Shown here in pieces: positions 9,852 through 60,189 of a stretch of 64,000 bases of DNA. The stretch is from Candidatus Gottesmanbacteria bacterium GW2011_GWA2_43_14 (GTDB lineage: Bacteria > Patescibacteriota > Microgenomatia > 2-02-FULL-39-11), in NCBI GenBank assembly GCA_000999095.1, contig LCFP01000003.1, positions 26,839 to 90,838 on the forward strand, read 5' to 3'. Each line of letters opens with the position of its first letter. Positions within the stretch are counted from its first letter, which is position 1. A program made the position numbers and the translations under genes. The notes beneath the pieces were generated by a model. It did not search any database and was not told the DNA's origin. It saw only the letters and a list, made by a program, of their open reading frames with translations.

Positions 9852-9859
9852 ACTGCCTC

Positions 9860-36827: not shown

Positions 36828-37590
36828 TCAGAAAAAAAATAACAGCCAGAATAATCCGGTAAACACCGAAGGCCAGGAAAGTATGCCTTTTCAGGTAGGC
36901 CAAAAGAATTCGGATGCTGAGTAAAGCTGTCAGGTAAGCTCCTGCAAAACCTGCCGTCAAAAGAATAATCTCCTGTTTTTGGGCCACCCAGTTACTTTTA
37001 AAAATGTCGAGAAGGGAGGCTGCCAAAATGGTCGGTACGGCCAGAATAAAGGAATATTCAGTGGCTGTTTTCCTGTTTAATCCGAGAAAAAGTCCGCCAA
37101 TAATGGTAGCGGCTGCCCGGGAAACTCCGGGAACCATGGAAACGGTCTGGATTGTGCCTATCAGCAAAGCTTTTTTTATGCCAATGTGCTGAAGCTGCAT
37201 AACTGATTTACCTTTTCGAGGTATCTGCCAAAGTTCCAATAAAATCATGATAATACCCCCAAGAAAGAGCATTATTACCGTAAGCAGGGTATTTTCAAAA
37301 AGATGTTTGACGTAGGGGTAAAAAAATAAGCCGGCGGCCCCTGTAGGGATAAATCCGGCCATGGCAAGCATAAATATTTTCCTATCGGATATTTTTTTCA
37401 TGTAAAGTGTAGCAACTGCCAAAATAGCTCCCAATTGGATAATAATTTCGAAACTTTTCACAAAAGCTGACTGGCTTATTTTTAATAAATAGGAAGTTAA
37501 AATAAGGTGACCGGTCGAGGAAACCGGTAAAAACTCCGTCAGACCTTCGACCGCGGACAGGATTAGTGCATCAAGAATGGTCATAAACAA
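36814..37590 (-). CDS. uppP: undecaprenyl-diphosphate phosphatase UppP/BacA
   Basis: N-terminal …VEGLTEFLPVSSTGHLIL… signature, 8 TM. Confidence 0.9.
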   Translation of the reverse strand: MFMTILDALILSAVEGLTEFLPVSSTGHLILTSYLLKISQSAFVKSFEIIIQLGAILAVATLYMKKISDRKIFMLAMAGFIPTGAAGLFFYPYVKHLFENTLLTVIMLFLGGIIMILLELWQIPRKGKSVMQLQHIGIKKALLIGTIQTVSMVPGVSRAAATIIGGLFLGLNRKTATEYSFILAVPTILAASLLDIFKSNWVAQKQEIILLTAGFAGAYLTALLSIRILLAYLKRHTFLAFGVYRIILAVIFFLIIAG

Positions 37591-41233: not shown

Positions 41234-43786
41234 ATGATACCGGGAAAAGTGGCTATGATTTCTCCAGCTCACCTTGACTTAGTCATAAACAGTATTGCAG
41301 AAGGTATTACCGTTCAGGATATGCGAGGAAACTTAATTTACGTAAATGAGGCAGCTGCCAGATTGACTGGTTTTAAGAGTGCAAAAGAGTTGCTTTCAAC
41401 ACCGCGCGAAAAAATCCTGGAAAAGTATGAATTGCTGGATGAAGCCAGGCGGCTTATACGCGCAGGCCGTTTGCCGGGAAGAATGGTAATCAGTTCGGGA
41501 AAACCCCAGGAGGAAGTCATTCAGTTTCGGATACTCGCAACCGGCGAAAAACGGTGGTCGACCGTTAAATCCAGACCGGTTAACGATAAACAAAAAAAAC
41601 TGAAGGTCATCGTAAATGTTTTCAGGGATATTACCCGTGAAAAAGTTACCCAAGACCAATTGATACATAAGATCAGACAGCAGGAATCAGTTTCCCTATT
41701 GGGGCAAAAATCGCTGGAAGGTGCATCAAGCAGTAAAATCATGCAGTTTGCCCTGGAAATTCTCTCCCTGCGGCTGCCTATTGAATACTCGAAAATCGCT
41801 CGGATGGATGACGACGGTAAAAGCCTGCTAATAATCTACGGAAAAGGCTGGAGGAAAGGGAATATAGGGACAGTTCGCGAGGCAAGCGACATATATTCTC
41901 CGGCAGGATATACCCTGAAATCGAGGAAACCGGTGATCATGAATAACTTGGCTGAGGAAAAAAGGTTTAAAATTCCGGCTTTTCTCAAAGATCACGGGAT
42001 AAACAGCGGAATGAGTGTCATAATTCATGGTGAGCAGAAACCCTTCGGAGTTCTCGGAGTCTATTCCAATTCAGCAGTCAAATTCAACCGCGATGACATT
42101 TATTTCCTGTCCCAGGTCTCAAATATAATCGCGGAAAGCATAGAGGGGGAAAAGAAAGTAGAAGAGATAAAATTCCAGACAAAACTAATAAATGCTGTTG
42201 AAGAGGCAGTAATTGCAACTGATCCGGATGGGAAAGTAATTTTTTGGAATGACTATGCTTCAAAACTATACGGCTGGAAAATGTCGGAAATGAAAGGTAA
42301 AAATTTAATGAAAATAATTCCCGATTGGGAGAAAAATAAAACAAAATTTGCCATGGCCGCCGTTAGAAAATCCGACAGCTGGTCCGGAGAAATGCAACTT
42401 CTCAATAAAAACGGCAAAGTCTTCACTGCCTCGGTTTCTGATTATCCGGTCATGGGAAATAACGGAAAACTTATTGGTATGGTGGGTGTTTCCCGAAATA
42501 TTTCAATAGAAAAACGGCAGGAAATAAGTCTGCTGTTTTTGGAAAGGGCCACTGCCATGATGGGTTCATCATTGGAATACGAGAAAACATTAGCGGAAGT
42601 TTGCCGCCTCGCCGTTTCTGAATTTTGCGAGTGGTGTGTAGTTGATTTATGGGAAGACGGTAAATTAAGACAACTCTCGGTCAGCCATTTCCGGAAATCG
42701 ATGGTTGATAAAGCCCTGATTTTTCAAAAACAATACCCACCGAACTTAAATAAAACTGAAGGCAGGCTGATAATTGCCCGAAGCGGAAAACGCATATTCA
42801 TACCTGAAATTAATAAGTTGATGTTAAAGAAATATGCCATGTCTGCCGAACAGCTGAAGCAGTTGGAATCTTTTAATTTTAACTCTTACATAGGAATTCC
42901 GATCAAATACCAGGAAAAAACATTAGGCGTCCTAAGTTTTATCAACACCGGGGGAAACAGAATTTTTTCAAGGGCGGATTTATCAATAGCCCAAAATGTA
43001 GCTAACCGGGCCGGTGTAGCCATCGAAAACGCCAGATTGTACAACCTGGCGCAGGAAAAGATAAGTGAAAAGGAAGAGATAGAAAAAAGAAAGGATGAAT
43101 TTATATCCATTGCTTCTCATGAGTTGAAAACACCTTTAACTTCAATCAAAGCCTTCACCCAAATTCTGTTAAAGAGCGTGTCTGACGACGAAATCAAACA
43201 TAAGAAATATCTCACAAGAATGGACCAGCAGCTGGACAAGCTGACAGAACTCATAAATGATCTTCTGGATGTTTCCAGAATTAAATCAGGAGTGTTGGAG
43301 CTTCGGGAGGAAATTTTTCCCCTGGATATATTTGTCAGGGAAGTCGTAGAGGATGTGGCCAGCATTGTACCCAATAATGACATAGTCGTTGTCGGCAGGA
43401 CAGGCAGGCTGATCAAATCGGATAAAAATAGAATCAGCCAGGTGCTCACAAATCTATTAACCAATGCCGGTAAGTATTCTCCAAACGGCCGCGAAATCCT
43501 GGTCAGGCTTGATTATTCCGACAAGGAGGTCACTATTCATGTGGAAGATTTCGGGATAGGTATTGCTAAAAACAAAATAAATAAAATATTCCAAAGGTTT
43601 ACCAGGATCAACAATCCGAAAAATGAAAAATCTCCCGGTTTAGGATTGGGCCTTTACATATCATCCCAAATCATCAACCGGCTGGGAGGGGAACTCCGTG
43701 TTAAAAGTGAACCAGGAAAAGGTTCCGTTTTCAGTTTCAACCTGCCTACTCTTAAAGAAAAGCAACTGTTATTATCATATAATTAA
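41234..43786 (+). CDS. cytoplasmic multi-domain sensor histidine kinase (PAS-GAF-PAS-GAF-HisKA-HATPase)
   Basis: No TM; H-box ISIASHELKTPLTSIKAF; HATPase G1/G2 (GLGLGLYISSQII…GGEL). Confidence 0.8.
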   Translation: MIPGKVAMISPAHLDLVINSIAEGITVQDMRGNLIYVNEAAARLTGFKSAKELLSTPREKILEKYELLDEARRLIRAGRLPGRMVISSGKPQEEVIQFRILATGEKRWSTVKSRPVNDKQKKLKVIVNVFRDITREKVTQDQLIHKIRQQESVSLLGQKSLEGASSSKIMQFALEILSLRLPIEYSKIARMDDDGKSLLIIYGKGWRKGNIGTVREASDIYSPAGYTLKSRKPVIMNNLAEEKRFKIPAFLKDHGINSGMSVIIHGEQKPFGVLGVYSNSAVKFNRDDIYFLSQVSNIIAESIEGEKKVEEIKFQTKLINAVEEAVIATDPDGKVIFWNDYASKLYGWKMSEMKGKNLMKIIPDWEKNKTKFAMAAVRKSDSWSGEMQLLNKNGKVFTASVSDYPVMGNNGKLIGMVGVSRNISIEKRQEISLLFLERATAMMGSSLEYEKTLAEVCRLAVSEFCEWCVVDLWEDGKLRQLSVSHFRKSMVDKALIFQKQYPPNLNKTEGRLIIARSGKRIFIPEINKLMLKKYAMSAEQLKQLESFNFNSYIGIPIKYQEKTLGVLSFINTGGNRIFSRADLSIAQNVANRAGVAIENARLYNLAQEKISEKEEIEKRKDEFISIASHELKTPLTSIKAFTQILLKSVSDDEIKHKKYLTRMDQQLDKLTELINDLLDVSRIKSGVLELREEIFPLDIFVREVVEDVASIVPNNDIVVVGRTGRLIKSDKNRISQVLTNLLTNAGKYSPNGREILVRLDYSDKEVTIHVEDFGIGIAKNKINKIFQRFTRINNPKNEKSPGLGLGLYISSQIINRLGGELRVKSEPGKGSVFSFNLPTLKEKQLLLSYN

Positions 43787-43793
43787 ATTTAAT

Positions 43794-44186
43794 ATGAACG
43801 GAAAGAAGCATATTCTGATTGTTGACGATGACTCGGCAATTCTTGATGTCATTCAGATCATTCTCAATGACGCCGGATATGCGACCCATATCATTTCAGA
43901 CGGGGATCAGGTGAGAAATTTCCTTAACAGGCAACGGGTGGATTTAATTCTTCTTGATATCTGGATGTCAGGCATGGACGGATCGGAAATTACAAAAATG
44001 CTGAAAGATGATAATGGCACTAAAAGCATCCCCGTTATCATGATTTCGGCCAACAATCAGGGGATGAATATTGCCAAGTCTTCCGGAGCTGACGGTTTTA
44101 TCGCTAAACCGTTCGAAATTGACCAACTTTTAAATGTGGTAGCCAAATTTATCAACGGAAAAAAGCTTTTAACCGAAAACTACTAA
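43794..44186 (+). CDS. single-domain response regulator (CheY-like receiver)
   Basis: ILIVDDD…DLILLDIWMSGMDG…KPF; start at internal ATG 7 nt after kinase stop. Confidence 0.75.
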   Translation: MNGKKHILIVDDDSAILDVIQIILNDAGYATHIISDGDQVRNFLNRQRVDLILLDIWMSGMDGSEITKMLKDDNGTKSIPVIMISANNQGMNIAKSSGADGFIAKPFEIDQLLNVVAKFINGKKLLTENY

Positions 44187-44456: not shown

Positions 44457-45776
44457 GTGCCTGTCCAAAAACTAATCAGCAAATTATCGCAAAATAAAGA
44501 AAAATATTTAATCTTTGCCCTGATTGAATCAATACTTCTCCTCCTCCTATTTATTCACCGCTTAACTGACGTAAAACAAATCTTAAGTCCGCTTGTTTTT
44601 CCGGATACAGCCAACCAGGAAAGAATCCTGCAGAAAAACCAACGCGAAGTATTCGGATTCGCACCTTATTGGGTATTTGACCGGCGATTGGATAATGTTG
44701 ATTTCAGCGTCCTGACTACATTCGCTTATTTCGGTATTGACGTACTGGATACAGGCTACCTCAATAAAAAAAATGATGCCTACCGCGTCTTTAACAGTCG
44801 TAGGGCAACCGATATTTTCAGTAAGGCGCATCGGAACGGTACCAAAGTAGTTTTGACTTTGACCCAGATGGATAACGCGACCATCACAAAATTTCTGGAT
44901 AATCCGTCCGCCTGGAAAAGATCCTCAACCGAAGCTGCAGCCGAAGTGAAACGCCGGGGGATCGACGGAGTCAATGTTGATTTTGAATATGTCGGCAATC
45001 CTGGTTCGAGCTACCGCCGGAAATTCAGCGATTTTGTCCGGATTCTGACAACGGAGATGCACAGGAATCTGCCTGACTCCCGGGTTACTGTTTCCGTTTA
45101 TGCTTCATCAGCCAAGGAACCCAAGCTTTATGATATCGGCGCTTTAGCCAATGACAGTGACGGCATTTTCATGATGGCCTATGATTACGCCACAACAACG
45201 GCCGAAAAGGTAATGCCTACTTCGCCTCTTTACGGTTATAAAGAAGGAAAATACTGGTATGATGTATCGACAGCCATCGAGGATTTTCTGAAAGAGATGC
45301 CGGCGGAAAAGCTGATTTTGGGAGTACCCTGGTACGGTTACAATTATGCGGTAGCTTCTCCTGAAATTAATGCTTCTGTCAACCGCGGATATTATACCTG
45401 GCGGAGAATCGGCAGGCGGAATATAAGAGTTTTTAATCCCCAAAGAGGAACAGCCCAGACATATTCGGCCCTTAAAAATAAAATCAGCGTCACGCCCCAA
45501 GAAGGAGAAACTTTACTTTCCGGATGGGACGATATCGGCCAGGTCGGCTGGCAGGCATACAAGAGCAGAGGAGTCTGGAGAATGATTTTCATCGAAGACA
45601 GCCGTTCTCTGGGTGTGAAATACGATTTTGCCATAAGCAAGAATTTGGGCGGGATAGGTATTTGGGCTTTGGGTTTTGACCAGGGAGGTGAATTTTGGCA
45701 GGTGCTGGCTGAAAAGTACGGACGCAAATTGGCCGAAAACAACCGTGTCAGTAAAAAAATAAATAAGAATATATGA
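44457..45776 (+). CDS. glycoside hydrolase family 18 (chitinase/peptidoglycan hydrolase-like)
   Basis: DGVNVDFEY catalytic DxxDxDxE motif; N-terminal TM; GTG start. Confidence 0.75.
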   Translation: MPVQKLISKLSQNKEKYLIFALIESILLLLLFIHRLTDVKQILSPLVFPDTANQERILQKNQREVFGFAPYWVFDRRLDNVDFSVLTTFAYFGIDVLDTGYLNKKNDAYRVFNSRRATDIFSKAHRNGTKVVLTLTQMDNATITKFLDNPSAWKRSSTEAAAEVKRRGIDGVNVDFEYVGNPGSSYRRKFSDFVRILTTEMHRNLPDSRVTVSVYASSAKEPKLYDIGALANDSDGIFMMAYDYATTTAEKVMPTSPLYGYKEGKYWYDVSTAIEDFLKEMPAEKLILGVPWYGYNYAVASPEINASVNRGYYTWRRIGRRNIRVFNPQRGTAQTYSALKNKISVTPQEGETLLSGWDDIGQVGWQAYKSRGVWRMIFIEDSRSLGVKYDFAISKNLGGIGIWALGFDQGGEFWQVLAEKYGRKLAENNRVSKKINKNI

Positions 45777-46858
45777 AAGATTTTGAAGTTAAATTCGATC
45801 TAACTTACGATAAACAGAAATTCAGGACGCTAAACTGGAAAATATTTCTGGTAAGCATGGCCGTATCCGCCCTGCTCTCAGTGTTCACCTCCTCTATTCC
45901 CCGAATCAGCCTTCTGTCACCGGCTATCGATAATATGCGGATTGATGTATTTTCCGTTGTTTTGCCGAAACTTAAAGAAATACCCAATGAATTCATACTC
46001 CGTAAAAAATCTTCTTTGGTTTCCTCGGCTTATGCCACAGGAGAGTTGGATAAGGCGAAAGCCTACGGTATTATCAATTTTGAAACGGGAGAAATAATCA
46101 GGGAGAAAAACCTGGATAAAATACTGCCGATTGCCTCTTTGACCAAAGTCATGACAGCTGTGGTTGCAATGGACCTGGCAGATAAAGATGAAACATTTAC
46201 CGTCTCAAGGAATGCTGCCAATAAGATTCCAACCAAAATCGGGGTAGTGCCCGGCCAAAAACTCTCCCTCGAAGAACTTTTGAATGCTCTCCTTTTGACC
46301 AGCGCCAATGATGCGGCTGAAGTTATAAAGGAAGGCATTGACAGTAAATACGGGGCTGAAATATTTATCAGAGCCATGAATGCCAAGGCTGAATTTTTAG
46401 GACTCCGTCACAGTACTTTCCAGAATCCCCAGGGATTTGATGCGCCAAATCACTATTCCAGTGCCGGTGATATGACTGTTTTAAGCCATTATGCGTTGGA
46501 AAATTATCCAGTGATATCACAAATCGTGGTCAAGGACTTTCAAAGACTGTCACAAACCAGGCAGCACAAAAAATACGACCTTTATAACTGGAACGGCCTG
46601 ATCGGGGTATACCCTAATGTTTTCGGAGTAAAGATCGGTTATACGGGAAAAGCCGGGAAAACAACCGTTGTCGTATCCCAAAGGGACGGCGTTAAAATTA
46701 TGGCAGTTGTTCTGGGAGCGCCGACGGTTCTCGCGCGCGACCTCTGGGCGGGGCAGGCATTGGACATTGGTTTTGAAGAAACGGCAGGCCTGCCTGCCAT
46801 AAATATTTCCGAGCAGCAATTAAAAGCGAAATATTTGACCTGGAATAACTGGCCATAA
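45773..46858 (+). CDS. D-alanyl-D-alanine carboxypeptidase (S11, PBP5/DacA-like)
   Basis: SxxK (ASLTK), SxN (TSAND) and KTG-like motifs; 4-bp overlap with GH18 gene. Confidence 0.75.
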   Translation: MKDFEVKFDLTYDKQKFRTLNWKIFLVSMAVSALLSVFTSSIPRISLLSPAIDNMRIDVFSVVLPKLKEIPNEFILRKKSSLVSSAYATGELDKAKAYGIINFETGEIIREKNLDKILPIASLTKVMTAVVAMDLADKDETFTVSRNAANKIPTKIGVVPGQKLSLEELLNALLLTSANDAAEVIKEGIDSKYGAEIFIRAMNAKAEFLGLRHSTFQNPQGFDAPNHYSSAGDMTVLSHYALENYPVISQIVVKDFQRLSQTRQHKKYDLYNWNGLIGVYPNVFGVKIGYTGKAGKTTVVVSQRDGVKIMAVVLGAPTVLARDLWAGQALDIGFEETAGLPAINISEQQLKAKYLTWNNWP

Positions 46859-46924
46859 CTTCTTTCTTACCAACTCTAACTATCTCCTTTAAATGAAACA
46901 TCCATAATCTGAAAACGCTAACCT

Positions 46925-48865
46925 ATGACCAAATTCAGGCTGACAGTTTTTTTTTGCGGTTTTTTATCTTTCATTATATTTATTGCCGTTTTGACATACC
47001 TGAATTTCCACAGTGTTTACCGCTTCAAGGAGAAACTGCTTCAGTATAACGACCGCGGACTGATACTGTTTGATGTGGCCGGCAGGCCATTTTTTGAATT
47101 CGGTGAATCAAAAGTCAGACAATACATCTCATGGCAGGAAATTCCAAAGTATGCAAAAAGCGCGGTTGTGGCTGCCGAAGACAAAGATTTTTACCGGCAT
47201 CCGGGTTTTTCAGTTAAAGCCATAGCCAGGTCAATATGGAAAAATTTAAAATCAGGCTCTATATCCTACGGAGCCTCCACTTTGACGCAGCAATTGGTCA
47301 AAAATAACCTTTTATACCAGGATAAGAAACTGCTCAGAAAATACCAGGAAATTCTTATCGCTTTGCTTTTGGAACAACGCTACTCCAAAACTGAGATTCT
47401 GGAAATGTATTTGAACAGTGTTTATTTCGGCCAGGGTGCCTGGGGCATCGGCGAGGCTGCTGAAACCTATTTCGGGAAAAATGCCCATGATCTGACTCTG
47501 GCTGAAACGACTGTTTTAATAGCTGTTTTGCCTTCACCTTCACTTTACGACCCTTTAAAAAGTGACAACTATAAAAAGCGCCAGCAAACCACCCTATCAA
47601 GCATGGTCGAGCAAGGCGCAATTACCAGGGAAATGAAAAGTCAGGCGTTAGCGGAAAAGCCCGATTTTCAAAATCAGACTTCCAAGTTAAACAAGAATGC
47701 CCCTCATTTTGCCCTGATGGTTCGTGATTTTTTAAAGGAAAAATGGGGAGAGAGGGCGGAAAGTTCGGGCTGGAAAGTGCAGACTACTTTAAATCTTGAC
47801 TGGCAGAAATTTGTAGAAAATGATCTCAAGAACCAGGTGATCTTGTTAAAGCAAAAAAAGGTTTCCAACGGCGCCGCTGTAGTTTTGGACACACGAAGCG
47901 GGGCTGTCAGAGCTTTGGCGGGCAGTTACGATTGGAATGACAACCGCGTCGGCCGGATTAATATGGTTTTAAAACCCCGGCAATCGGGATCAGCCTTTAA
48001 ACCGCTGGTTTATCTGGCGGCACTTGAGGCCGGCTGGCTTACACCAGCCTCTATCCTTAATGACCGGCCTGCAAACTACAGTACGCCAACTGGTTTTTAC
48101 AAGCCTAAAAATTACGACCGGCGTTTCCGGGGTAATGTAACCGTAAGACGAGCCCTGGCTAATTCTTTAAATGTACCGGCCGTTGAAGTCATGTCTAAAT
48201 TAGGCGTTTATGATGCTCTCCGGTTTGCAGGTAAAATGGGTATTACCAGTTTAAAAGGAGCTGACAACTACGGCCTCTCTTTGGTCTTGGGCACCGGGGA
48301 AGTCAGCCTTCTGGAGCTGGCCGGAGCTTACTCTGTTTTGGGCAATAACGGCAGTTTGCATAATACATTTACGGTTATCTCCATAAGGGACAATCAGAAC
48401 AGAGAGATCTACCGGGTAAAGGATAAACCGCAACAGGTCGTAAGTCCGGAATCATCTTATTTGGTCACTTCCATTTTGTCGGATGAAAAGACTAGACGGG
48501 AAATTTTCGGCCGCCTGCTGGATACGGATACCCCTGCAGCTGTCAAAACCGGCACAACCGATGATTACCGTGATTCGGTGACTGCAGGATACACTCCTTT
48601 TATCACAGCAGCTGTCTGGGTAGGCAACAATGACAACAGTCCCATGACGGCAGTAGCCGGTTCATTGGGGGCAGCTCCTGCCTGGAAAAAGATAATTGAC
48701 GGTTTATCAAAAAGTTTTCCTGTCACGGATTTTTCCCCTCCGGAGTCTGTTGTGAAATTGAAAGTCTGTTCACCTGCCGGATTTTCGGAGCCAAATGCGG
48801 AAACAGGTGGAGGCAAAGTAGAATATTTTATGGCCCAAACGGCAAACCGCATTAAAACGTGCTAG
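46925..48865 (+). CDS. class A penicillin-binding protein (GT51 transglycosylase + transpeptidase)
   Basis: GT51 motif AAEDKDFYRHPG; SGSAFKP (SxxK); KTGTTDD. Confidence 0.85.
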   Translation: MTKFRLTVFFCGFLSFIIFIAVLTYLNFHSVYRFKEKLLQYNDRGLILFDVAGRPFFEFGESKVRQYISWQEIPKYAKSAVVAAEDKDFYRHPGFSVKAIARSIWKNLKSGSISYGASTLTQQLVKNNLLYQDKKLLRKYQEILIALLLEQRYSKTEILEMYLNSVYFGQGAWGIGEAAETYFGKNAHDLTLAETTVLIAVLPSPSLYDPLKSDNYKKRQQTTLSSMVEQGAITREMKSQALAEKPDFQNQTSKLNKNAPHFALMVRDFLKEKWGERAESSGWKVQTTLNLDWQKFVENDLKNQVILLKQKKVSNGAAVVLDTRSGAVRALAGSYDWNDNRVGRINMVLKPRQSGSAFKPLVYLAALEAGWLTPASILNDRPANYSTPTGFYKPKNYDRRFRGNVTVRRALANSLNVPAVEVMSKLGVYDALRFAGKMGITSLKGADNYGLSLVLGTGEVSLLELAGAYSVLGNNGSLHNTFTVISIRDNQNREIYRVKDKPQQVVSPESSYLVTSILSDEKTRREIFGRLLDTDTPAAVKTGTTDDYRDSVTAGYTPFITAAVWVGNNDNSPMTAVAGSLGAAPAWKKIIDGLSKSFPVTDFSPPESVVKLKVCSPAGFSEPNAETGGGKVEYFMAQTANRIKTC

Positions 48866-48874
48866 TATAGATGA

Positions 48875-49060
48875 ATGGTTAAAGGGGACTTTGCACTGAA
48901 AAAATTACGGCATGACATCAAAAATTATTTGACGGTGATAAGATTAAATCTGTTTTTACTGAAAAAGGATTTACCTCCGGAAAAAGAACAGTTTGCAGTC
49001 AAGATTGAGGAAAAATTGGAGCTGATTTTACGGGACCTGGAAAAAAGCAAAAAAGGATAA
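48875..49060 (+). CDS. 61-aa protein with H-box-like motif (possible stand-alone DHp/phosphotransfer helix hairpin)
   Basis: …LRHDIKNYLTVIRLNL… resembles HisKA H-box; no ATPase domain. Confidence 0.3.
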   Translation: MVKGDFALKKLRHDIKNYLTVIRLNLFLLKKDLPPEKEQFAVKIEEKLELILRDLEKSKKG

Positions 49061-49066
49061 AACGGT

Positions 49067-49738
49067 TTATTCTTTGATGACGTAACCGAATCCGCGAACG
49101 GTATTAATAAGAAGCTTTTTGGAGTTTTGATCGATTTTTTTCCTTAAATAACCGATGTAGACATCAACTACCCGGGGCTCAATATAGTCAGCCGTCAGCC
49201 AGATGCGTTGAAGAATCATGTCCCTTGTCAGTACCCGTCCGGCATTAATCATCAGATACTGCAGGAGCTCATATTCCTTATGGGAAAGGCTTATTATCCG
49301 GTCACCCCTTTTTACCTCAAAGGTTTTGGTATTAAGCTCCAGGTCTGCAACTTTGAGGGATGTGCCGTTATGCTCCAAGTGGCGCAGCCTGGCTTTTATC
49401 CGGGCGATGAGCTCTTCGCCTTTGAAAGGTTTGGTAATGTAATCATCAGCACCCAGATTTAATCCTTTAACGATATCGGTCACATCATCTTTGGCAGTGA
49501 GAATGATAACCGGGAGGTCGGGAAACTTTTTTCTGATTTCCGTCATGACTGATTCACCGCTTAATTTGGGCAAACCCAAGTCCAGGATGACCAGGTCCGG
49601 CCGGCGGCTTTCCACCAGATCCAGAGCTTTTACACCGTCCGGTGCTTCTACTACTGAATAGCCTATATCAAGGAGTAAAGTGTTGATGTATTTGCGGATG
49701 TCATTGTCGTCTTCAATAACCATTACCGTTTTGATCAT
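49067..49738 (-). CDS. OmpR/PhoB-family response regulator (receiver + winged-helix)
   Basis: VMVIEDD…DLVILDLGLPKLSG…; C-terminal wHTH …RVLTRDMILQRIW…VDVYIGYLRKKI. Confidence 0.85.
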   Translation of the reverse strand: MIKTVMVIEDDNDIRKYINTLLLDIGYSVVEAPDGVKALDLVESRRPDLVILDLGLPKLSGESVMTEIRKKFPDLPVIILTAKDDVTDIVKGLNLGADDYITKPFKGEELIARIKARLRHLEHNGTSLKVADLELNTKTFEVKRGDRIISLSHKEYELLQYLMINAGRVLTRDMILQRIWLTADYIEPRVVDVYIGYLRKKIDQNSKKLLINTVRGFGYVIKE

Positions 49739-49784
49739 AGGGGAATCATTCTAACACATTCTTACAATTTGTAAATCGGCAAGT

Positions 49785-50201
49785 TCAGCTTTTTGAAGGG
49801 TCAGGAACAGGGTTGACCTGGTTATTATCGAGTAGCGTGAAAAAATTATTAATTTCATTAACTATGTCTTTCGGGACGAGGTGGGCTTTTAAAAAAAATC
49901 CTTCAGCTCCGATTTTAAAGGCTTTTTTGATAATTTCATCCTGGCCCAAATTTGTAATCAGAAAAACGGGTGTGTTTTTGTTTTTAGATTCAGGTTTTTT
50001 TATTTCGATCAGGACATCAATACCGGTGACTTTTGGCAGCATGATATCCAAAAGAATCACGTCAAATATTTGCTGGGAAATCTTGTTTTCCGCTTCAGCG
50101 CCGTCTATCGCCAGAGTTACATCATATCCGGCTTTGCAGAACGCCCGTTCATACAGTTCCCTGATAAACTCCTCATCTTCGACAATCAGGACTTTCTTCA
50201 T
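49785..50201 (-). CDS. single-domain response regulator (CheY-like receiver), paralogue of 57553..58092
   Basis: VLIVEDEEFIRELY…DVILLDIMLPKVTGIDVL…. Confidence 0.8.
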   Translation of the reverse strand: MKKVLIVEDEEFIRELYERAFCKAGYDVTLAIDGAEAENKISQQIFDVILLDIMLPKVTGIDVLIEIKKPESKNKNTPVFLITNLGQDEIIKKAFKIGAEGFFLKAHLVPKDIVNEINNFFTLLDNNQVNPVPDPSKS

Positions 50202-50206
50202 ATCCT

Positions 50207-52498
50207 TTACTTTAACAGAATACCATTCATATTCACCTGTGACAACTTATCACCGGTTTTTATTTCATTAAAATGTTTAATACTGTCATCCGTCAAAATC
50301 GGCAGGGCAAAATAAAAAGTAGAGCCTTTACCCAATTCACTCCGGACCCATATATTTCCGTGATGCATCTCGATTATTGATTTGGAAATGAATAAGCCTA
50401 GCCCGGTCCCTTTTGACCCCTGTTCCAGCGCTCCCGACACACGGTAAAATTTGCTGAATAATTTCGGAATGGCTTCCTTGGGGATTCCCTGTCCGGTATC
50501 CATGATGGAAACAACCAGTCTTGACTTGCCGTTTATGTCGGGATTAGATTCGATTGACTCCTTTACCTTTATTGTGCCCCCCGATTGCGTGTAAGCGACA
50601 GCGTTTGACAAAAGATTTGACAGTACCTGGGAAATGCGGAAGCTGTCCGCCAAGACATGAGGAAATTTGGTAGTCAAGGGCAGGTATTCAACCGTTTGAT
50701 TTTTTGTGTGGGCAATTTCTTTAAACCCGGATACGGTATTGGAAATTGTTTCGCTCAGGTCTACGGGACTGACATCAACTTTAAAAGCATCCCGTTCAAT
50801 CCGGGCGACATTCAACAGATTGTCTATCAGGCTGTTTAAATTTCTGGTGCTGACGACCAGACGTTCAACATACCGCTTGTGTTCATCAGACAGTTGCGGG
50901 GCAATTTCGTCGCTGATGATCTGCACGTATCCCCTGATTGAAGTCAGCGGCGTCCGAAGTTCATGGGCTGCCATCGAGACAAAATCCACTTTCATCTCTT
51001 CAAGCTTTAATTCTTCGGTCACATCATGAACAGTTATAATGCAGCCTAAATTTCCGGCCCGGCTTTCGGTGATTTTGCCGGTCACCAGATTGACGCATGA
51101 CTCTTTTTGGTTAGCGACTAATCTGAGATTTTTTTTGTTAAAGATGACTCCTTCAAACGTATCATTACGGATAGGGGCATATCTGTCCGGCAGCAATTCT
51201 TCCTCTTTGTCATAAAGCCTGAAAACCTCCTTCAGGTACCGGCCGATCACCTGTTTCGATTCAGTCCCGGTGATTTTTTCGGCGGCCGAGTTAAATTGTG
51301 TTATACACTGATTCAGATCCGTGGCGATAACTCCGTCCTCGATTGCCGAAAGGATGACCGCCAGTTTATTCCTTTCGGAAGATATATTTTCTTTTTCCCG
51401 CTCCAGCTGGGAGCGGTTTGTTTTCAACTGTAAAGCCATGATATTGAGGCTTTTACCCAAATCTTCTATTTCATCCCCGCTGGTTATTTCCACTTCGGTA
51501 TCCAGATTTCCCTGCTTAATCAGATCGGTAAAATAAATAAGCTTGAGAATCGGCTGGATAAAGCGGGTGCTTAATACAATCGAACTTGCGACCAGCAACA
51601 ATAATGAGAAAGCGGCGGTCGTGAAGTAAAGATTTCGCAACATGGTAAGCTGGGCGAATATTTCCGCTTCCGGCTGTTCGACAACGACTATCCACTCCAA
51701 TCCGGGAATTTTTAAGCTGTCGGAAACGACGCGGACATTGTCTTCGTTGGTATAGACATCCGATGATTCAGGTAAAAGCTGTTCATTGTCCTCACCAGAG
51801 TCCAATTGCCGCTTGATTACCGGTCTGTCTGAAAAATTCGGTCCGGACAGGACAAGTTCGTGCTTGGGATGCATAATCAGACGGCCTTCATCATCAACTA
51901 CATAGGCAAACCCGCTTTTTCCAAGCTTCACCTGGGCAATAACGTCCGACAGCCTGTCTAACCGAAGCTGGCTTTTAACTACACCTGCAACCAAACCCAG
52001 TTCGGATACTACCGGAGTAAAAACTGAAAGATAGGGCATAGAGTCTGATTCGGAAAAATAAACTTTGGAGACGGCTGTTCTGCCGGATAAAGCGGACTTA
52101 AAAGGATCAGTCGGGATTTCAATGCTGAGGTTTTCGTCCCTTGAGACAGAATATCTGTCGGCTTTAATTAATTCCCTGCCGGTTGGGGATAAAATGCTGA
52201 TATTCTGGTAGAAAAATTTTTGGCGGATTGAGTATTTTATGACTTCGACAACTTTGTCCGGGTCAGATTCATAGTTCAGCTGAAATTCGCGTCCTATACC
52301 CAAATGGTCCAATTCAATTGACGAAGTCAGATTATTAATATATGAGGCGGCATCCCGGGCTTTCTCCTTTAGGATTTGGTTATTCTGGTTGCGGATGTAC
52401 TTTTCCGTGAGTTTAAATCCGAATGTCTGGGAAATGAAAAAGAGAACAAGAACTACGGCATATCCCAGGAGAATTTTGCTGCGGATAGACAGTTTCAT
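50207..52498 (-). CDS. membrane sensor histidine kinase with extracytoplasmic Cache-like and PAS domains
   Basis: Two TM flanking about 270-aa sensor domain; HAMP-like; H-box [16 protein letters not shown]; HATPase. Confidence 0.85.
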   Translation of the reverse strand: MKLSIRSKILLGYAVVLVLFFISQTFGFKLTEKYIRNQNNQILKEKARDAASYINNLTSSIELDHLGIGREFQLNYESDPDKVVEVIKYSIRQKFFYQNISILSPTGRELIKADRYSVSRDENLSIEIPTDPFKSALSGRTAVSKVYFSESDSMPYLSVFTPVVSELGLVAGVVKSQLRLDRLSDVIAQVKLGKSGFAYVVDDEGRLIMHPKHELVLSGPNFSDRPVIKRQLDSGEDNEQLLPESSDVYTNEDNVRVVSDSLKIPGLEWIVVVEQPEAEIFAQLTMLRNLYFTTAAFSLLLLVASSIVLSTRFIQPILKLIYFTDLIKQGNLDTEVEITSGDEIEDLGKSLNIMALQLKTNRSQLEREKENISSERNKLAVILSAIEDGVIATDLNQCITQFNSAAEKITGTESKQVIGRYLKEVFRLYDKEEELLPDRYAPIRNDTFEGVIFNKKNLRLVANQKESCVNLVTGKITESRAGNLGCIITVHDVTEELKLEEMKVDFVSMAAHELRTPLTSIRGYVQIISDEIAPQLSDEHKRYVERLVVSTRNLNSLIDNLLNVARIERDAFKVDVSPVDLSETISNTVSGFKEIAHTKNQTVEYLPLTTKFPHVLADSFRISQVLSNLLSNAVAYTQSGGTIKVKESIESNPDINGKSRLVVSIMDTGQGIPKEAIPKLFSKFYRVSGALEQGSKGTGLGLFISKSIIEMHHGNIWVRSELGKGSTFYFALPILTDDSIKHFNEIKTGDKLSQVNMNGILLK

Positions 52499-52502
52499 TC
52501 AT

Positions 52503-53420
52503 TTATTCCAGCCATTTCTGCTTCAGTAAAACCAGGTACCCCTGTTGTCTCAGGCTGTTCAGAGCAGTATTAATTTCCGCGATCAAATCATCCTCATTTT
52601 TCCGGAAGACCACACCGTATTCTTCCTCCGTAAAGGGTTCTCCCGCTATTTTAAGTTCCTGATTACTGTCAACAATTCCTTTGGCATTGGTCAGATCGGT
52701 GATAATGGCGTCGGCTTCCCCTTTTATCAACGCATCAGTAGCTCCGATAAAATCGTCAAAAAGAAGTACTTGATCGGGAGGGGCAGCCTTGAGAGCTTCA
52801 TCTTCACTGGTGGTTCCCTTTTGAACGGCTATCCTTTTAGCCGACAAATCATTTTCCGACTTGATGGAGTTTTCTGTTTCCAAAGTGATGATCACCTGGC
52901 CGGCATTTAAATAAGGAATGGAAAAATCAACGGTTTGTTTCCGTTCTTCATTGATGGTCACGCTCGAGAGGATAATGTCGGCTTCCCTCCTGTTCAAAGA
53001 ATTGAAAATGTCATCAAAGAGAATTGATGAGAATTCAGCTTTAACACCAAGCTTTTCGGCAATTTTATTCCCCAAGTCGATATCATATCCGGCCATCATT
53101 TGGTTGTCATCAACAAATTCCATCGGAGGATATGTTGCGTCCGTGGCGATAATGATTTTCCCGGCATTTTTAATGCGTTCTACATTCGGCAGGGACGGCT
53201 TTTCCTCCACCACCAGTTTTCTGCTTAGGGAACTTATGTAAAATAACCCGGCCCCTAATAAAACGATGAACCATAAACCAAGCACAATCAGCCATAAGTG
53301 ATGCCGTTTCGGTACGACAGGGGGTTGGGAAGGAATAGGGGAAGCGGCCGAAAGGACGGAGGACGGTTCAGGAGGGACAGTTTGATCCTGATCGGACGGC
53401 ATACTTTTACCATATATCAA
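52503..53420 (-). CDS. membrane-anchored family-3 solute-binding protein (amino-acid ABC-type SBP fold), likely kinase co-sensor
   Basis: Pro-rich N-terminus + TM then SBP_bac_3-like domain; stop 4 nt from kinase start. Confidence 0.6.
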   Translation of the reverse strand: MIYGKSMPSDQDQTVPPEPSSVLSAASPIPSQPPVVPKRHHLWLIVLGLWFIVLLGAGLFYISSLSRKLVVEEKPSLPNVERIKNAGKIIIATDATYPPMEFVDDNQMMAGYDIDLGNKIAEKLGVKAEFSSILFDDIFNSLNRREADIILSSVTINEERKQTVDFSIPYLNAGQVIITLETENSIKSENDLSAKRIAVQKGTTSEDEALKAAPPDQVLLFDDFIGATDALIKGEADAIITDLTNAKGIVDSNQELKIAGEPFTEEEYGVVFRKNEDDLIAEINTALNSLRQQGYLVLLKQKWLE

Positions 53421-53665: not shown

Positions 53666-54253
53666 ATGAAGAAAGCTATTGGATCAATGGCCTTTGCAGC
53701 CGGACTGCTTCTGATGAGCGGTGTCCCTGCCATGGCCAAGGAATACTGCGGTAATAAAATTACAGGCCCTTTCAGTTATAACCGCTGCAAAATCGATAAT
53801 GAAAAGAAAATTTATATCGATTTAGATCAAAGAGCCAAGGTTAAGAATTATGTTCATACCGATTTCAATACCGGAAATAATTCGGAATACACAACCAAAG
53901 CCAAAGGAGGTCACACAAGCGGTGATGTTGATGCTGATGTAAAAATATACAATGACGTTAACAGCGCTAATCTCCTTATAGCACAGGGCGGAGACGGTAA
54001 CGGACAAAAAGGAAGTAATTATGTTACCGGTCCGTTTTCTCTAAACACAGTCGAAATAAAAGACAAAGCCAAGATTGACGTGGATTTGAATCAGAACGCG
54101 TATGTTAAAAACGATGTCACTGTCAACGCGAATACCGGAAGTCAATGCAAATTTACCACAATTTGCAACACCGGAAGTTCAGGCGACATTGATTCGGACG
54201 TGAAGATTGTAAATAAAGTTAACGATGCGGTATTGACTGTTGTTCAAAACTAG
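53666..54253 (+). CDS. secreted protein with two tandem ~70-aa repeats
   Basis: Strong SD GGAGAAAGGAGGTG; signal peptide; repeat (NKITGPFSYNRCKID…DVDADVKIYNDVNSANLLIAQ vs NYVTGPFSLNTVEIKD…DIDSDVKIVNKVNDAVLTVVQN). Confidence 0.65.
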   Translation: MKKAIGSMAFAAGLLLMSGVPAMAKEYCGNKITGPFSYNRCKIDNEKKIYIDLDQRAKVKNYVHTDFNTGNNSEYTTKAKGGHTSGDVDADVKIYNDVNSANLLIAQGGDGNGQKGSNYVTGPFSLNTVEIKDKAKIDVDLNQNAYVKNDVTVNANTGSQCKFTTICNTGSSGDIDSDVKIVNKVNDAVLTVVQN

Positions 54254-54274: not shown

Positions 54275-54314
54275 CAAACTCTCCAAGGTACCTGCCTGGG
54301 AGAGTTTGTTTTTT
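54275..54314. terminator. bidirectional rho-independent terminator between convergent genes
   Basis: CAAACTCTCC-loop-GGAGAGTTTG followed by TTTTTT (and preceded by A-rich tract on the other strand). Confidence 0.65.
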
Positions 54315-57552: not shown

Positions 57553-58092
57553 TTATTGGGGTTTATCGGGAGATGGAGCAGTTGCCGGCGAAGAAGGGGG
57601 AGGAGTAACCGGTTGAACCTGAGGGGGTACGGCTGGGGTTATGTCAGCCGGAGCGGGAGCCGGAGATGCCACAGGCTCTGCTGCCGCCGGTGCCGCTGAC
57701 TGATTCTGTAAATCCGCCATCTGCTGGAAAAATGCATCCACTTCCCTGACAACGTCCATGGGTGTAAATTGGGCTTTGATCAGATAACCGTCAGCCCCGA
57801 TTTTGAAGGCTTCCTTGATGATATCTTCCTGGCCAAGATTGGTGATCAGAATGATAGGTGTATTTTTCGTCGGAGAAGTAGGGGCTCTCATGGCCCGCAG
57901 GACATCGATGCCGGTAACCTTTGGCAGCATGATATCCAAAAGAATCAGATCGTATACATGGCTGCTTAATTTAACCAGAGCTTCTTGTCCGTCCGAAGCA
58001 GTTTCGACCGAATAATTGCCGGTTTTAACGAAAGACATGCGGTAGATTTCCTGAATGTGGAAATCGTCCTCAACCAATAACAGGGTTTTCAT
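57553..58092 (-). CDS. single-domain response regulator with Pro/Ala-rich C-terminal tail
   Basis: LLLVEDDFHIQEIY…DLILLDIMLPKVTGIDVL…; tail …PAPAPADITPAVPPQVQPVTPPPSSP. Confidence 0.8.
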   Translation of the reverse strand: MKTLLLVEDDFHIQEIYRMSFVKTGNYSVETASDGQEALVKLSSHVYDLILLDIMLPKVTGIDVLRAMRAPTSPTKNTPIILITNLGQEDIIKEAFKIGADGYLIKAQFTPMDVVREVDAFFQQMADLQNQSAAPAAAEPVASPAPAPADITPAVPPQVQPVTPPPSSPATAPSPDKPQ

Positions 58093-58095
58093 AAT

Positions 58096-59613
58096 TTAAT
58101 TGCTGCCTGAATTGCCGGCCATCCTCTGGGAAATTCTTTCAGGATTAATCATAATACCTTTTCCGGTTTTAGACAAACTGCCGAACTGGGCTGCCGGTTG
58201 GGATGCCTGGATATTGGAAGCGATAGGCAGGGTAAAAGTGAAAGTTGAGCCTTTGCCAAGTTCGCTTTCAACTGAAATTTCTCCACCATGCATGGTAATA
58301 ATGGATTTGGAAATGAATAATCCTAAACCTGTGCCCTTGGATCCCTGTTCCAGGACGCTGGAAACCCGGAAAAATTTGGTAAAAAGCTTGGCAAGGGCTT
58401 CTTTGGGAATGCCGATGCCGGTGTCCCTGACGGAAACGGAGACGAATGAATCCTTTTTGGTAAGATAGATCTTTATTGATTCGCCAACAGGAGTATAGGT
58501 TATGGCGTTTGTTATCAAATTGGAAATAACCTGATTGATACGCGAAGAGTCAGCCATTACCAGGGGCAATTTTTCCAGCGGCTCTTCAAAAGTCAGTGTT
58601 TGTCCTTTGCTGTTTGCCTGGTCTATCATATCGGTAACGGTATTTTTCACAAGAGAGGTCAAATCCAAGGCTGCAGGTTCAATTTTATAGGACCCTCTTT
58701 CAATCCGCGAGACGTTTAACAGATTATCGATGAGAGTTCCCAAATTTGCAGCATTATATTCGAGTCGATGCAGATGCTCCTGATGTTCCGGAGACAGTTT
58801 TTCGCCCAGTTCGGAGTTCAGAAGTTCGGCATATCCCCTGATGACTGTCAAAGGCGTCCGAAGTTCATGGGCTGCCATGGAAACGAAGTCTAGCTTCATT
58901 TCCTCCAGGGCTTTTTGATTGGTTTCGTCATAGAATGTCAGAATAAAACCGTGGTTTTCCTCTTCCTGGAAAGTGACTGTAGTAATGGAAACAGATACAT
59001 GGAATATCTTGCCGTCCTGCGATCTGATTTGCAGGCCGTGTTCACGATGGATTGTCGCCAGCTCATCCGGTTTGACAAAGTAATTGGAAACTATGATTTT
59101 TTCATCGCCCCCGTAAATATGAAGTATTTCATCAATATGTTTTCCGGTAACCATTTGCTCCGTAAAACCCGTGAATTTCTCGGCCGTTTTATTGAAAATC
59201 AGGACTTTGCCGCCCTGGTCCAGAGCAATTACTGCTTCAGATAAAGAAGCCAGCAGGGTTTCCATTTTCTTTTCCTGCCTGTTGAATTGCGCTTCACGCT
59301 GTCCGATTTGTTCGGTTATCAAAGTAAAAGTGGTTGACAGATGTTCTAAATCCTGACCGGCGATGCCTATGCCGGAATTGAATTTTTCCTTTTCCAGTTT
59401 TTCCAAAGCTGAGGCCATTTTGTTGCCTATCGAGCTGTAAAATAAGTTTATTACCAATATCGAAGCTAAAATAAGCAGATTACCGGCTACTAAAACCAGC
59501 CAAAAACCGGGAAGCGGTCCTCCTAAAAGATAAGCAATCAGGGCAAGTGCGGTGAAAAGGCCGGTCAGGATTACGGCTGTTATAAGGGATTTTGCTCTCA
59601 AGCTTATTTTCAT
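58096..59613 (-). CDS. membrane sensor histidine kinase (2 TM, PAS domains)
   Basis: H-box [16 protein letters not shown]; HATPase; 3-nt gap to downstream receiver gene. Confidence 0.85.
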
Positions 59614-59685
59614 AAGAAGAAGAATCCAGTTAAAACGGATTCATAATCAGCATAAGCCAAATTAAAGCAATTTGTAAACCTCCAA

Positions 59686-60189
59686 TTGATCTGCTATCTT
59701 CAATTTATGAATAAAAGACTTAAGTTGGGATGGTTTTCATTTTCCTGCTGTGAAGATTCAACTATTATCTTTACAGAGCTTCTGAATGATCACTATTTAA
59801 CCTGGAAGAAATTGATTGATTTTCGGTCAATTTCGGTTCTTCAGAAGAAAGAAGATCTGACGGATTTGGATGTAGCCTTTGTTGAAGGAGCCATAACTTC
59901 AGGCGGGCAGTCGGATAGGCTAAAGGTGATCCGCGAAAACAGCAAAAAACTGGTGGCCGTAGGGAGTTGTGCCTGTGTCGGTATGCCGTCAGCCCAGAGG
60001 AATCTTTTTAACACAGAAACAAATACAGAAATTGAGGCTATCCTGACCCGATTCAAGTACTTGCCTAAAGTACAAAAATTGTCAGAAATTGTGACTGTTG
60101 ACGATCAGGTGCCAGGCTGTCCGATGAACGAAAAAATATTCCTGACTTTAGTTGATAAATACTTAAAGGAGTTTAAGATAATTTCCTAA
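59686..60189 (+). CDS. [NiFe]-hydrogenase small subunit, group-3-like (single proximal FeS-cluster domain); start may be ATG at 59707
   Basis: …GWFSFSCCEDS…GSCACVGMP…VPGCPMNE matches small-subunit proximal-cluster motifs (GxCAxxGG, PGCPP). Confidence 0.7.
   Translation: MICYLQFMNKRLKLGWFSFSCCEDSTIIFTELLNDHYLTWKKLIDFRSISVLQKKEDLTDLDVAFVEGAITSGGQSDRLKVIRENSKKLVAVGSCACVGMPSAQRNLFNTETNTEIEAILTRFKYLPKVQKLSEIVTVDDQVPGCPMNEKIFLTLVDKYLKEFKIIS

Follow-up and report, generated by a model that had tools for sequence, protein, structure and literature searches.

A stand-alone HisKA-type hairpin encoded tail to tail with an OmpR-family regulator in Gottesmanbacteria, most likely a phosphorelay or phosphatase module

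Results

We analysed a stretch of 64,000 nucleotides from Candidatus Gottesmanbacteria bacterium GW2011_GWA2_43_14 (contig LCFP01000003.1; this whole stretch is hereafter the window), in which a gene on the + strand (48875..49060) encodes a 61-aa protein identified by Pfam HisKA, hhalign, an AlphaFold2 model and a family of 10 loci as a stand-alone HisKA-type helical hairpin. We refer to this protein as mini-DHp, after the dimerisation and histidine phosphotransfer (DHp) hairpin of histidine kinases; in the database it is annotated as a hypothetical protein of Candidatus Gottesmanbacteria, within the Candidate Phyla Radiation. Its open reading frame (ORF) starts 9 nt past the stop codon of a PBP1a gene and ends 6 nt short of the stop codon of a convergent gene on the − strand (49067..49738), the product of which comprises a receiver and a Trans_reg_C winged helix according to Pfam and is an OmpR-family response regulator, here called OmpR. 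The first-pass annotation of this DNA had reported a 61-aa ORF convergent to a minus-strand operon, and the ORF list places it at exactly these positions. A readthrough fusion of PBP1a with mini-DHp was considered and rejected, as the two lie in the same frame but are separated by two in-frame stops (TAG, TGA).

The mini-DHp gene is the last of a + strand string headed by HK850 (41234..43786), a cytoplasmic kinase with the Pfam architecture PAS-GAF-PAS-GAF-HisKA-HATPase_c. HK850 lies 1 nt upstream of REC132 (43788..44186, +; Pfam, blastp), a receiver-only protein orthologous to the receiver that precedes the mini gene in relatives, and genes for GH18, Peptidase_S11 (a D-Ala-D-Ala carboxypeptidase) and PBP1a occupy the interval between REC132 and mini-DHp (44457..48865, +; Pfam). 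On the − strand, a 46-nt gap separates OmpR from REC138 (49785..50201; Pfam, blastp), a receiver-only protein with intact catalytic residues, which is followed in the upstream direction by HK763 (50207..52498; Pfam, blastp), a membrane kinase with dCache_1, HAMP, PAS, HisKA and HATPase_c domains, and, 4 nt upstream of HK763, by an SBP_bac_3 solute-binding protein (SBP) with an N-terminal hydrophobic anchor (52503..53420; Pfam E=5.7e-38). HK763 and REC138 have paralogs, 42% and 54% identical respectively, in HK505 (PAS-HisKA-HATPase_c) and REC179, which form another pair on the − strand (57553..59613; Pfam, blastp). The gene content, domains and intergenic gaps of 4, 5 and 46 nt described for the minus strand in the first-pass annotation are thus accurate, as is its count of three receiver-only regulators beside kinases (HK850/REC132, HK763/REC138 and HK505/REC179): by phmmer, the window holds four kinases and four receiver-containing proteins, three of them receiver-only and one, OmpR, with an output domain. 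The complete D-D-D-T/S-K set is present in every receiver, OmpR included (with its full Asp/Thr/Lys phospho-acceptor set), and all receivers should therefore be phosphorylatable.

At the sequence level, mini-DHp belongs to the HisKA domain family. It matches Pfam HisKA (PF00512) with E=6.7e-6 and 26.5 bits, 0.4 bits short of the gathering score of 26.9, and the same profile is matched by all six database members of the mini family (best E=2.6e-8). By hhalign, the family aligns His on His with the H-box region of HK505 (94% probability, E=9.6e-8) and with HK763 (E=1.9e-6), and the predicted phospho-acceptor, His13, aligns with the H-box His of HK505, HK763, EnvZ, KinB and Spo0B. The motif LRHDIKNYLTVI, earlier noted as H-box-like, is a genuine H-box. 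Scored against the mini profile, HK505 is the closest local kinase (17.2 bits, with 14.8 for HK850 and 12.0 for HK763), and it shares the motif LTVIR with mini-DHp. Similarity to the Spo0B hairpin is weaker: SPOB_a (PF14689) matches mini-DHp at E=0.021, with 14.9 bits where the cut-off is 28.1, the six database members all match it weakly (best E 7.6e-4), and hhalign with the mini family assigns a probability of 26% (E=7.2e-4). HisKA and SPOB_a are the only domains listed by a Pfam scan at E<=1, which gave no match to HPt (PF01627), and a search of PDB sequences with the family profile returned only non-significant matches (KinB, EnvZ).

A Pfam scan of the 61-aa protein also detected no HATPase_c domain, and because only 6 nt, or an overlap, precede OmpR, no leftover ATPase or kinase sequence is possible 3' of the hairpin. 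The first-pass description of a mini-ORF without an ATPase domain therefore stands on both counts, and mini-DHp is not a complete histidine kinase, since it lacks the catalytic ATP-binding (CA) domain. Structure prediction, which had been suggested as a check on the ORF, yielded with AlphaFold2 and the family alignment a helical hairpin of helices 2-30 and 37-60 (mean pLDDT, the per-residue model confidence, 89). The top-probability Foldseek matches in the PDB were the DHp domains of WalK, HK853 and an EnvZ chimera (root-mean-square deviation, rmsd, 1.3-1.6 Å); their E-values were not significant and are uninformative because helical hairpins match many designed proteins, so that the pointer to kinase DHp domains lies solely in the order of the matches by probability and rmsd. 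We infer that mini-DHp dimerises, in which case it is probably a homodimeric four-helix bundle.

Relatives of mini-DHp were sought by an exhaustive HMMER search of 1.84 billion representative proteins (E<=0.001), in which only five proteins of about 60 aa were found, the window protein and four homologs (44-53% identical, all 58-64 aa). A profile search contributed a sixth member, and four further mini ORFs, unannotated or unnamed, were recovered with profile E-values of 1e-9 to 1e-17 among the six-frame ORFs of loci fetched via OmpR orthologs. The family thus comprises 58–69-aa proteins at 10 distinct loci and, so far as sampled, is restricted to Gottesmanbacteria. A word-index homolog search with the 61-aa protein returned only the protein itself, and pattern scans of genomes and metagenomes with the family alignment gave no further member. 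One candidate (L019) was discarded as part of a longer kinase-like ORF running off its contig end. Another locus, L003, was discarded as an independent context because it is a probable chimera (contig coverage 2x), its OmpR-like gene (261-932) being 45% identical. This locus carries an identical mini gene, and the last 24 residues of its OmpR-like protein are identical to those of the window OmpR; the arrangement is due either to chimeric assembly or to recombination where the 3' ends converge. At least one member, the mini gene of L020 (7677-7886), was missed by the gene finder and most family members have neither name nor function, so such mini-proteins may be missed elsewhere.

Six positions (His13, Lys16, Asn17, Val21, Ile22 and Ile51) are invariant in the 10-member alignment, in which pairwise identity falls to 28%. 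The proportion of nonsynonymous differences in the mini gene (pN) is far below that of synonymous differences (pS), for example 0.215 vs 0.732 between L007 and L016, and the gene is under purifying selection; it evolves faster than its neighbours, with a ratio of nonsynonymous to synonymous substitution rates (dN/dS) of 0.69 between L014 and L016, as compared to 0.04-0.11 for neighbouring genes. A HisKA match accompanied by homologs of the same length and position in nine other loci is far beyond chance, and the 61-aa ORF is a real, conserved and selected gene.

Gene context was equally constant. An ortholog of the same regulator (68-96% identical to the window OmpR) faces the mini gene in convergent orientation at each of the 10 loci, where the two 3' ends share 0-14 nt or are separated by no more than 6 nt. 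The first-pass annotation had named conservation of the ORF next to the operon as a check on its proposal, and lack of conservation as a ground for refuting it, and the mini gene is kept next to OmpR in every related locus examined. Overlaps of 11-14 nt between the mini and OmpR 3' ends occur in six loci (L007, L008, L014, L016, L022 and L023). A scan, which covered only the window, showed no terminator-like site between the two stops (49061-49066); the convergent transcripts would overlap, making antisense interference possible.

Upstream of the mini gene, two layouts were distinguished. In layout A (L007, L008, L009, L014 and L016), a gene for a receiver of ~120 aa lies directly upstream, at a spacing of 7-9 nt in three loci and 40 nt in L009, with an 8-nt overlap in L008, which suggests co-translation of receiver and mini-DHp. 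In layout B (the window, L020, L021 and L022), the receiver gene is followed on the same strand by genes for GH18, the D-Ala-D-Ala carboxypeptidase and PBP1a, and the mini gene closes the series; L021 has two additional genes, on the opposite strand, that separate the receiver from this cell-wall block. A kinase gene is found directly upstream of the layout B receiver in the window and in L022, where HK264 takes the same position as HK850 and is 51% identical to it over the kinase core. The remaining locus, L023, belongs to neither layout: mini gene and OmpR converge there, but the stretch that was fetched showed no receiver. REC132 shares 52-60% identity with the receivers that precede the mini gene in the five layout A loci and with the receivers of L020 and L021, and 48% with that of L022.

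The wider backbone is syntenic across genomes and runs through thiamin pyrophosphokinase, BacA, a small membrane protein, receiver and mini-DHp, OmpR, a secreted ~195-aa repeat protein and DsbB, continuing after DsbB with an HK505-type kinase, a REC179-type receiver and hydrogenase genes. Directly upstream of OmpR, L014 and L016 encode an HK505-type kinase (63-64% identical) and a REC179-type receiver (75-84%). The SBP-HK763-REC138 block is absent upstream of OmpR in L020, the closest relative (OmpR 88% identical), and likewise in L021, L022 and L009; it is a lineage-specific insertion directly upstream of OmpR. REC132 is the conserved receiver partner of the mini gene, and HK505/REC179 is the conserved kinase/receiver pair. 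The particular path drawn in the first-pass annotation, from HK763 through REC138 and mini-DHp to OmpR, is consequently not supported as drawn, as it uses an insertion that is missing from L020 while the conserved receiver partner is REC132. Its more general idea of a relay in the manner of Spo0F and Spo0B is strengthened by the finding that the mini gene is co-operonic with a single-domain receiver in relatives.

We then considered the residues that surround the phospho-acceptor, numbered from His13 as H. The position H+1 is D in six members, K in three and S in one, and Lys at H+3 and Asn at H+4 are invariant (10/10). At H+12, nine of the ten members have Asn, as does Spo0B, where HK505, HK763 and HK850 have Tyr or Phe, so that the docking surface of the hairpin does not simply replicate that of a kinase nearby. 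The positions of the invariant His, Lys and Asn are solvent-exposed in canonical DHp structures. Working with four HisKA kinases (CrdS, HK1190, HK4262 and HK853), Willett and Kirby found the acidic H+1 residue to be required for kinase activity alone and the Thr/Asn at H+4 for phosphatase activity alone, phosphotransfer being near wild type in an N375A variant (PMC3510030). As the acidic H+1 residue is not conserved, mini-DHp looks like a DHp hairpin that no longer needs phosphorylation from ATP, which argues against its being one half of a split kinase. The pattern of residues favours retained phosphatase chemistry, given the invariant Asn at H+4; this Asn does not decide between transfer and phosphatase activity, because Spo0B, a pure phosphotransferase, also has H-D-x-x-N.

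Beyond the mini-bearing loci, a Levybacteria genome (L024; GCA_016180725.1; OmpR 66% identical) carries a full kinase at the mini position: HK386, a 386-aa GAF-HisKA-HATPase protein (7685-8845), is encoded convergently with OmpR, which suggests that the partner at that position contacts OmpR. The mini profile gave no match to HK386 at E<=1, so it is by position only that an origin of the mini gene from a Levybacteria-type kinase would be argued. In a second genome outside the clade (OmpR 62% identical), nothing related to the mini gene was present at the convergent position. Helix alpha1 of the regulator is the helix that contacts the DHp domain in known kinase-regulator complexes. Across 120 clusters of OmpR orthologs (P0007-P0126, residues ~9-20), the start of this helix reads [DE]-[IVL]-R at an identity of at least 67%, which corresponds to the clade with the mini gene. 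Almost all remaining clusters read [GS]-[IL]-Q, although [DE]-[IVL]-R also occurs in a small number of orthologs at 66% identity or below (P0043, P0044, P0050, P0065, P0126, P0101, P0106 and P0114).

Discussion

The best-supported reading of these data, to which we assign a probability of about 45%, is a relay resembling Spo0F/Spo0B/Spo0A in which phosphate passes through mini-DHp. The parts of a phosphorelay are present at the sequence level: kinases with intact receivers, a His carrier devoid of a CA domain and a terminal output regulator. We infer the phosphorylation of His13, the direction of phosphate flow and the receiver that feeds mini-DHp as follows. HK850, HK505 and HK763 would phosphorylate the adjacent REC132, REC179 and REC138; a phospho-receiver, REC132 first of all, would give its phosphoryl group to His13; and mini-DHp would hand it to the OmpR-type regulator encoded tail to tail with it, so that several inputs, from up to three kinases, would enter a single OmpR-type regulator. 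As the reaction is reversible, mini-DHp could also drain OmpR~P back to a receiver acting as a sink. Such a relay would explain the invariant His, the loss of the acidic H+1 residue, the synteny with both receiver and OmpR, the surplus of kinase/receiver-only pairs relative to output regulators and the docking residues that set the hairpin apart.

REC132, REC138 and REC179 carry ISANN or ITNLG at beta4 and keep Phe/Tyr at the switch position, and thus have neither the FATGUY motif in strand beta4 nor the lost beta5 aromatic switch that accompanies it. FATGUY is the beta4 motif of intermediary ('Rec-inter') receivers, yet it is absent from some intermediary receivers (PMC9981736); the motif not being universal, its absence does not exclude a relay.

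Several considerations weigh against a relay. The kinase-receiver-OmpR arrangement of L014 and L016 looks like an ordinary operon, and the kinase may therefore phosphorylate OmpR directly. Other Microgenomates have OmpR orthologs that function with no mini gene, and the association of the mini gene with the alpha1 signature is confounded by phylogeny, because that signature marks a single clade. A variable H+1 combined with an invariant Asn at H+4 is the signature of a kinase-dead, phosphatase-competent DHp hairpin, which fits a phosphatase acting on the regulator equally well. The relay is moreover read from sequence, synteny and predicted structure. Our searches of the open-access literature found no natural DHp-only or HisKA-only proteins, and we know of no natural DHp-only phosphotransferase.

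The alternative that fares best is a dedicated phosphatase, which we consider unlikely on balance but take seriously. Here the mini-DHp dimer would dock OmpR~P, the ~120-aa receiver or both, and would hydrolyse the aspartyl phosphate via His and the Asn at H+4, thus serving as a functional counterpart to Spo0E or CheZ made from a kinase hairpin, with the co-operonic receiver as a second substrate or a competitive regulator. Its tight and conserved adjacency to OmpR would suit this role, as would the invariance of Asn at H+4 (10/10) alongside a kinase-specific acidic position that varies between D, K and S, given that in CrdS, HK1190, HK4262 and HK853 the acidic residue serves the kinase reaction only and Thr/Asn the phosphatase reaction only (PMC3510030). 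The His itself participates in phosphatase chemistry, and HK853 without its ATP-binding domain has been used to measure phosphatase activity (PMC7005713); phosphatase activity has also been reported for the EnvZ DHp hairpin alone (Zhu et al. 2000, as cited in PMC3510030). On the other side, ADP stimulates the EnvZ phosphatase, and for HK853 as well as EnvZ the phosphatase activity is reported to depend on nucleotide and the ATP-lid (PMC7005713). The Asn at H+4 is not discriminating, being shared with Spo0B, and the Asn at H+12 differs from the Tyr/Phe of the neighbouring kinases, although a phosphatase for the cognate regulator of those kinases would be expected to share their docking residues. 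A phosphatase would also leave unexplained why three pairs of kinase and receiver-only protein accompany a single output regulator. Should mini-DHp prove to be one, it would be an auxiliary phosphatase of a new type, with a kinase hairpin as its origin.

Considerably less probable is a decoy or inhibitor with no chemistry of its own, which would form heterodimers with a kinase DHp domain, most likely that of HK505, or sequester receivers, and in this way dampen signalling. There are analogs in Sda, a small helical-hairpin inhibitor of kinases that acts on KinA, and in RetS, which acts on GacS, and the DHp domain of HK505 is indeed the best local match of the mini profile, with the hhalign score and shared LTVIR given above. 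The invariant residues (His, Lys and Asn) are, however, catalytic and, in canonical DHp structures, exposed, where a decoy would need only its core, and the conserved linkage is to OmpR and the ~120-aa receiver, whereas HK505 lies 1.7 to 8 kb away in several genomes.

Slighter still is the chance that mini-DHp is part of a split kinase, His13 being phosphorylated in trans by the catalytic domain of a full-length kinase and the hairpin serving as an extra phosphodonor for OmpR. Trans-phosphorylation of this kind is established in vitro for EnvZ, the domain B of which phosphorylates the isolated DHp hairpin (domain A), and both the window and L022 have kinase genes within the gene string of mini-DHp. 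Most loci, on the other hand, have no kinase in the operon of the mini gene, and the acidic H+1 residue, which is required for autophosphorylation by HisKA kinases (PMC3510030; PMC7005713), is Lys or Ser in 4/10 members. Very improbable, finally, is an ORF that arose by chance or survives as a non-functional remnant: most loci show no Shine-Dalgarno-like sequence upstream, the gene evolves faster than its neighbours and the window member falls just under the Pfam gathering score, but length, frame, His and hairpin are kept across 10 loci at synonymous saturation, the 7-9 nt spacing or overlap with the upstream gene fits translational coupling, and there is no room for leftover ATPase-coding sequence before OmpR.

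Among known systems, the nearest physical equivalent of mini-DHp is EnvZ 'domain A' of E. coli (67 residues; PDB 1JOY, 5B1O), which has the same size and fold. The mini family profile aligns with it ungapped, residues 11-53 on residues 19-61 of the construct and His on His, at E-values of 0.3-0.5, which are not significant. In vitro, this fragment is reported to dimerise, accept phosphate and donate it to OmpR. It has also been described as dephosphorylating OmpR~P in vitro (Zhu et al. 2000, as cited in PMC3510030). Whereas mini-DHp is a natural gene product, the EnvZ domain was excised from a full kinase in the laboratory, and the mini family, unlike EnvZ, has no Pro at H+5 and no conserved acidic residue at H+1.

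In function, the closest comparison would be Spo0B of B. subtilis, a DHp-like hairpin whose His shuttles phosphate from a receiver-only protein to a DNA-binding regulator, with several kinases upstream, as we propose for mini-DHp. The H-box helix of Spo0B, the sequence of which was checked against PDB 1F51/1IXM, resembles that of the mini family (H-D-x-x-N...I-[KR]-G-N-L, 48% identity over 25 columns), the two having in common Asn at H+4 and H+12 and G-N-L at H+11 to H+13. Both Spo0B and ChpT keep a C-terminal alpha/beta domain; mini-DHp, at 61 aa against 192 aa, ends after helix 2 and lacks the C-terminal alpha/beta domain of Spo0B (SPOB_ab). Spo0B is moreover encoded in an L21/L27/Obg context (PMC6136694), a neighbourhood not seen at the mini loci, and clostridial Spo0B-like proteins are full-length (PMC6136694). 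The likeness to Spo0B put forward in the first-pass annotation can hence be retained as a functional analogy with a similar H-box helix, but is less well supported as homology: the hairpin is of the HisKA type (hhalign 94% for HK505, an ordinary HisKA kinase, as against 26% for Spo0B), and for want of a C-terminal domain and of more than weak similarity mini-DHp is not a member of the Spo0B/ChpT family.

The alphaproteobacterial ChpT and PhyT are likewise dimeric, DHp-based phosphotransferases linking receivers, PhyT being bifunctional according to the accounts in PMC3433190 and PMC5898713. They keep a degenerate CA-like domain that mini-DHp lacks, and no sequence relationship with them was detected. 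HPt proteins (Ypd1, ShpA and the HPt domain of ArcB) have the role here proposed for mini-DHp, that of a small His carrier between receivers, but are monomeric four-helix bundles of a different family (PF01627); as it does not match that profile, mini-DHp is not an HPt protein. Spo0E and CheZ, which are aspartyl-phosphate phosphatases, and the kinase inhibitor Sda are small helical-hairpin modulators and would be the functional analogs if mini-DHp were a phosphatase or a decoy; they are unrelated to it in sequence, with no Pfam match. The catalytic residues of Spo0E (Asp) and CheZ (Gln) also differ from those of mini-DHp.

Taken together, this analysis suggests that mini-DHp is most likely a phosphorelay or phosphatase module made from a bare DHp hairpin, and as a relay it would be the smallest natural protein of its kind. 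More tentatively, the bare HisKA DHp dimer may constitute a third structural class of bacterial His phosphotransfer protein beside HPt and Spo0B/ChpT, one that would have arisen within Gottesmanbacteria as a minimal natural unit of phosphate exchange between receivers, funnelling several kinase/receiver inputs into one OmpR among peptidoglycan-enzyme genes. If the hairpin carries phosphate, a DHp domain needs neither a catalytic domain nor a pseudo-catalytic one in the style of Spo0B/ChpT in order to relay it, and 60 residues would provide a natural model for DHp-receiver recognition, phosphotransfer and phosphatase chemistry. A two-step pathway would also have been rebuilt as a four-step relay, with a full kinase in Levybacteria and a receiver plus bare hairpin in Gottesmanbacteria, and signalling in these very small genomes would be unexpectedly layered.

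Additional features of the locus

The 46-nt gap upstream of OmpR (49739..49784, −) was inspected by sequence scan and direct reading, and contains a promoter-like site for the OmpR gene, an imperfect direct repeat and a palindrome. On the + strand, the sequences CATTCTAAC and CATTCTTAC are 8/9 identical and lie 10 nt apart; the imperfect 9-nt direct repeat corresponds to GTAAGAATG/GTTAGAATG with its 10-nt spacing. The first-pass annotation had described a TCTTAC repeat here, of which one copy is exact and the second reads TCTAAC, so that the repeat is real but inexact. The palindrome, of 13 nt, is TTACAAnTTGTAA, and the promoter-like site, TTTACA-16-TAGAAT with an upstream TG (extended -10; 10/12 matches), overlaps both repeat and palindrome; judged from the sequence, the three may form an auto-regulatory operator. 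Relatives also have a promoter-like sequence upstream of OmpR, and the repeat is not conserved in L009, L014 and L016. The gene order from SBP through kinase and receiver to OmpR was correctly described as a row, but its unity as a single operon is not assured, because OmpR has a promoter-like site of its own. The best NCBIfam matches of the SBP are amino-acid binding proteins, all under their cut-offs, and the protein is a probable co-sensor.

The REC179-type receivers (57553-58092, −, in the window; also in L009, L014, L016 and L020) have Pro/Ala/Gln-rich low-complexity tails of ~50-110 residues and variable length, and Lys-Ala after strand beta5 in place of the usual Lys-Pro. In every case, HK505/REC179 diverges from genes encoding an Oxidored_q6 subunit and the large subunit of a NiFe-hydrogenase (58096-61479 in the window; L009, L012 and L020), a setting that hints at a redox- or hydrogen-related input or target. 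The fourth kinase of the window (9731-10993, +) is a HisKA-HATPase_c protein with a membrane-type N-terminus and no adjoining receiver gene in the window; the start listed for it falls in an overlap with the preceding ORF (9249-9851), so the true start is probably further downstream.

Further cell-wall genes lie nearby, a second PBP1a (54313-56553) and BacA (36814-37590), and the system may control peptidoglycan remodelling or cell-wall enzymes. The secreted protein of ~195 aa (53666-54253, +, in the window; 9028-9621 in L009; 6239-6832 in L020) has an internal duplication and no Pfam match, and its orthologs are 37-40% identical. In relatives its gene adjoins that of OmpR and diverges from it, which makes it a candidate direct target of OmpR; in the window, the SBP-HK763-REC138 block sits between the two.

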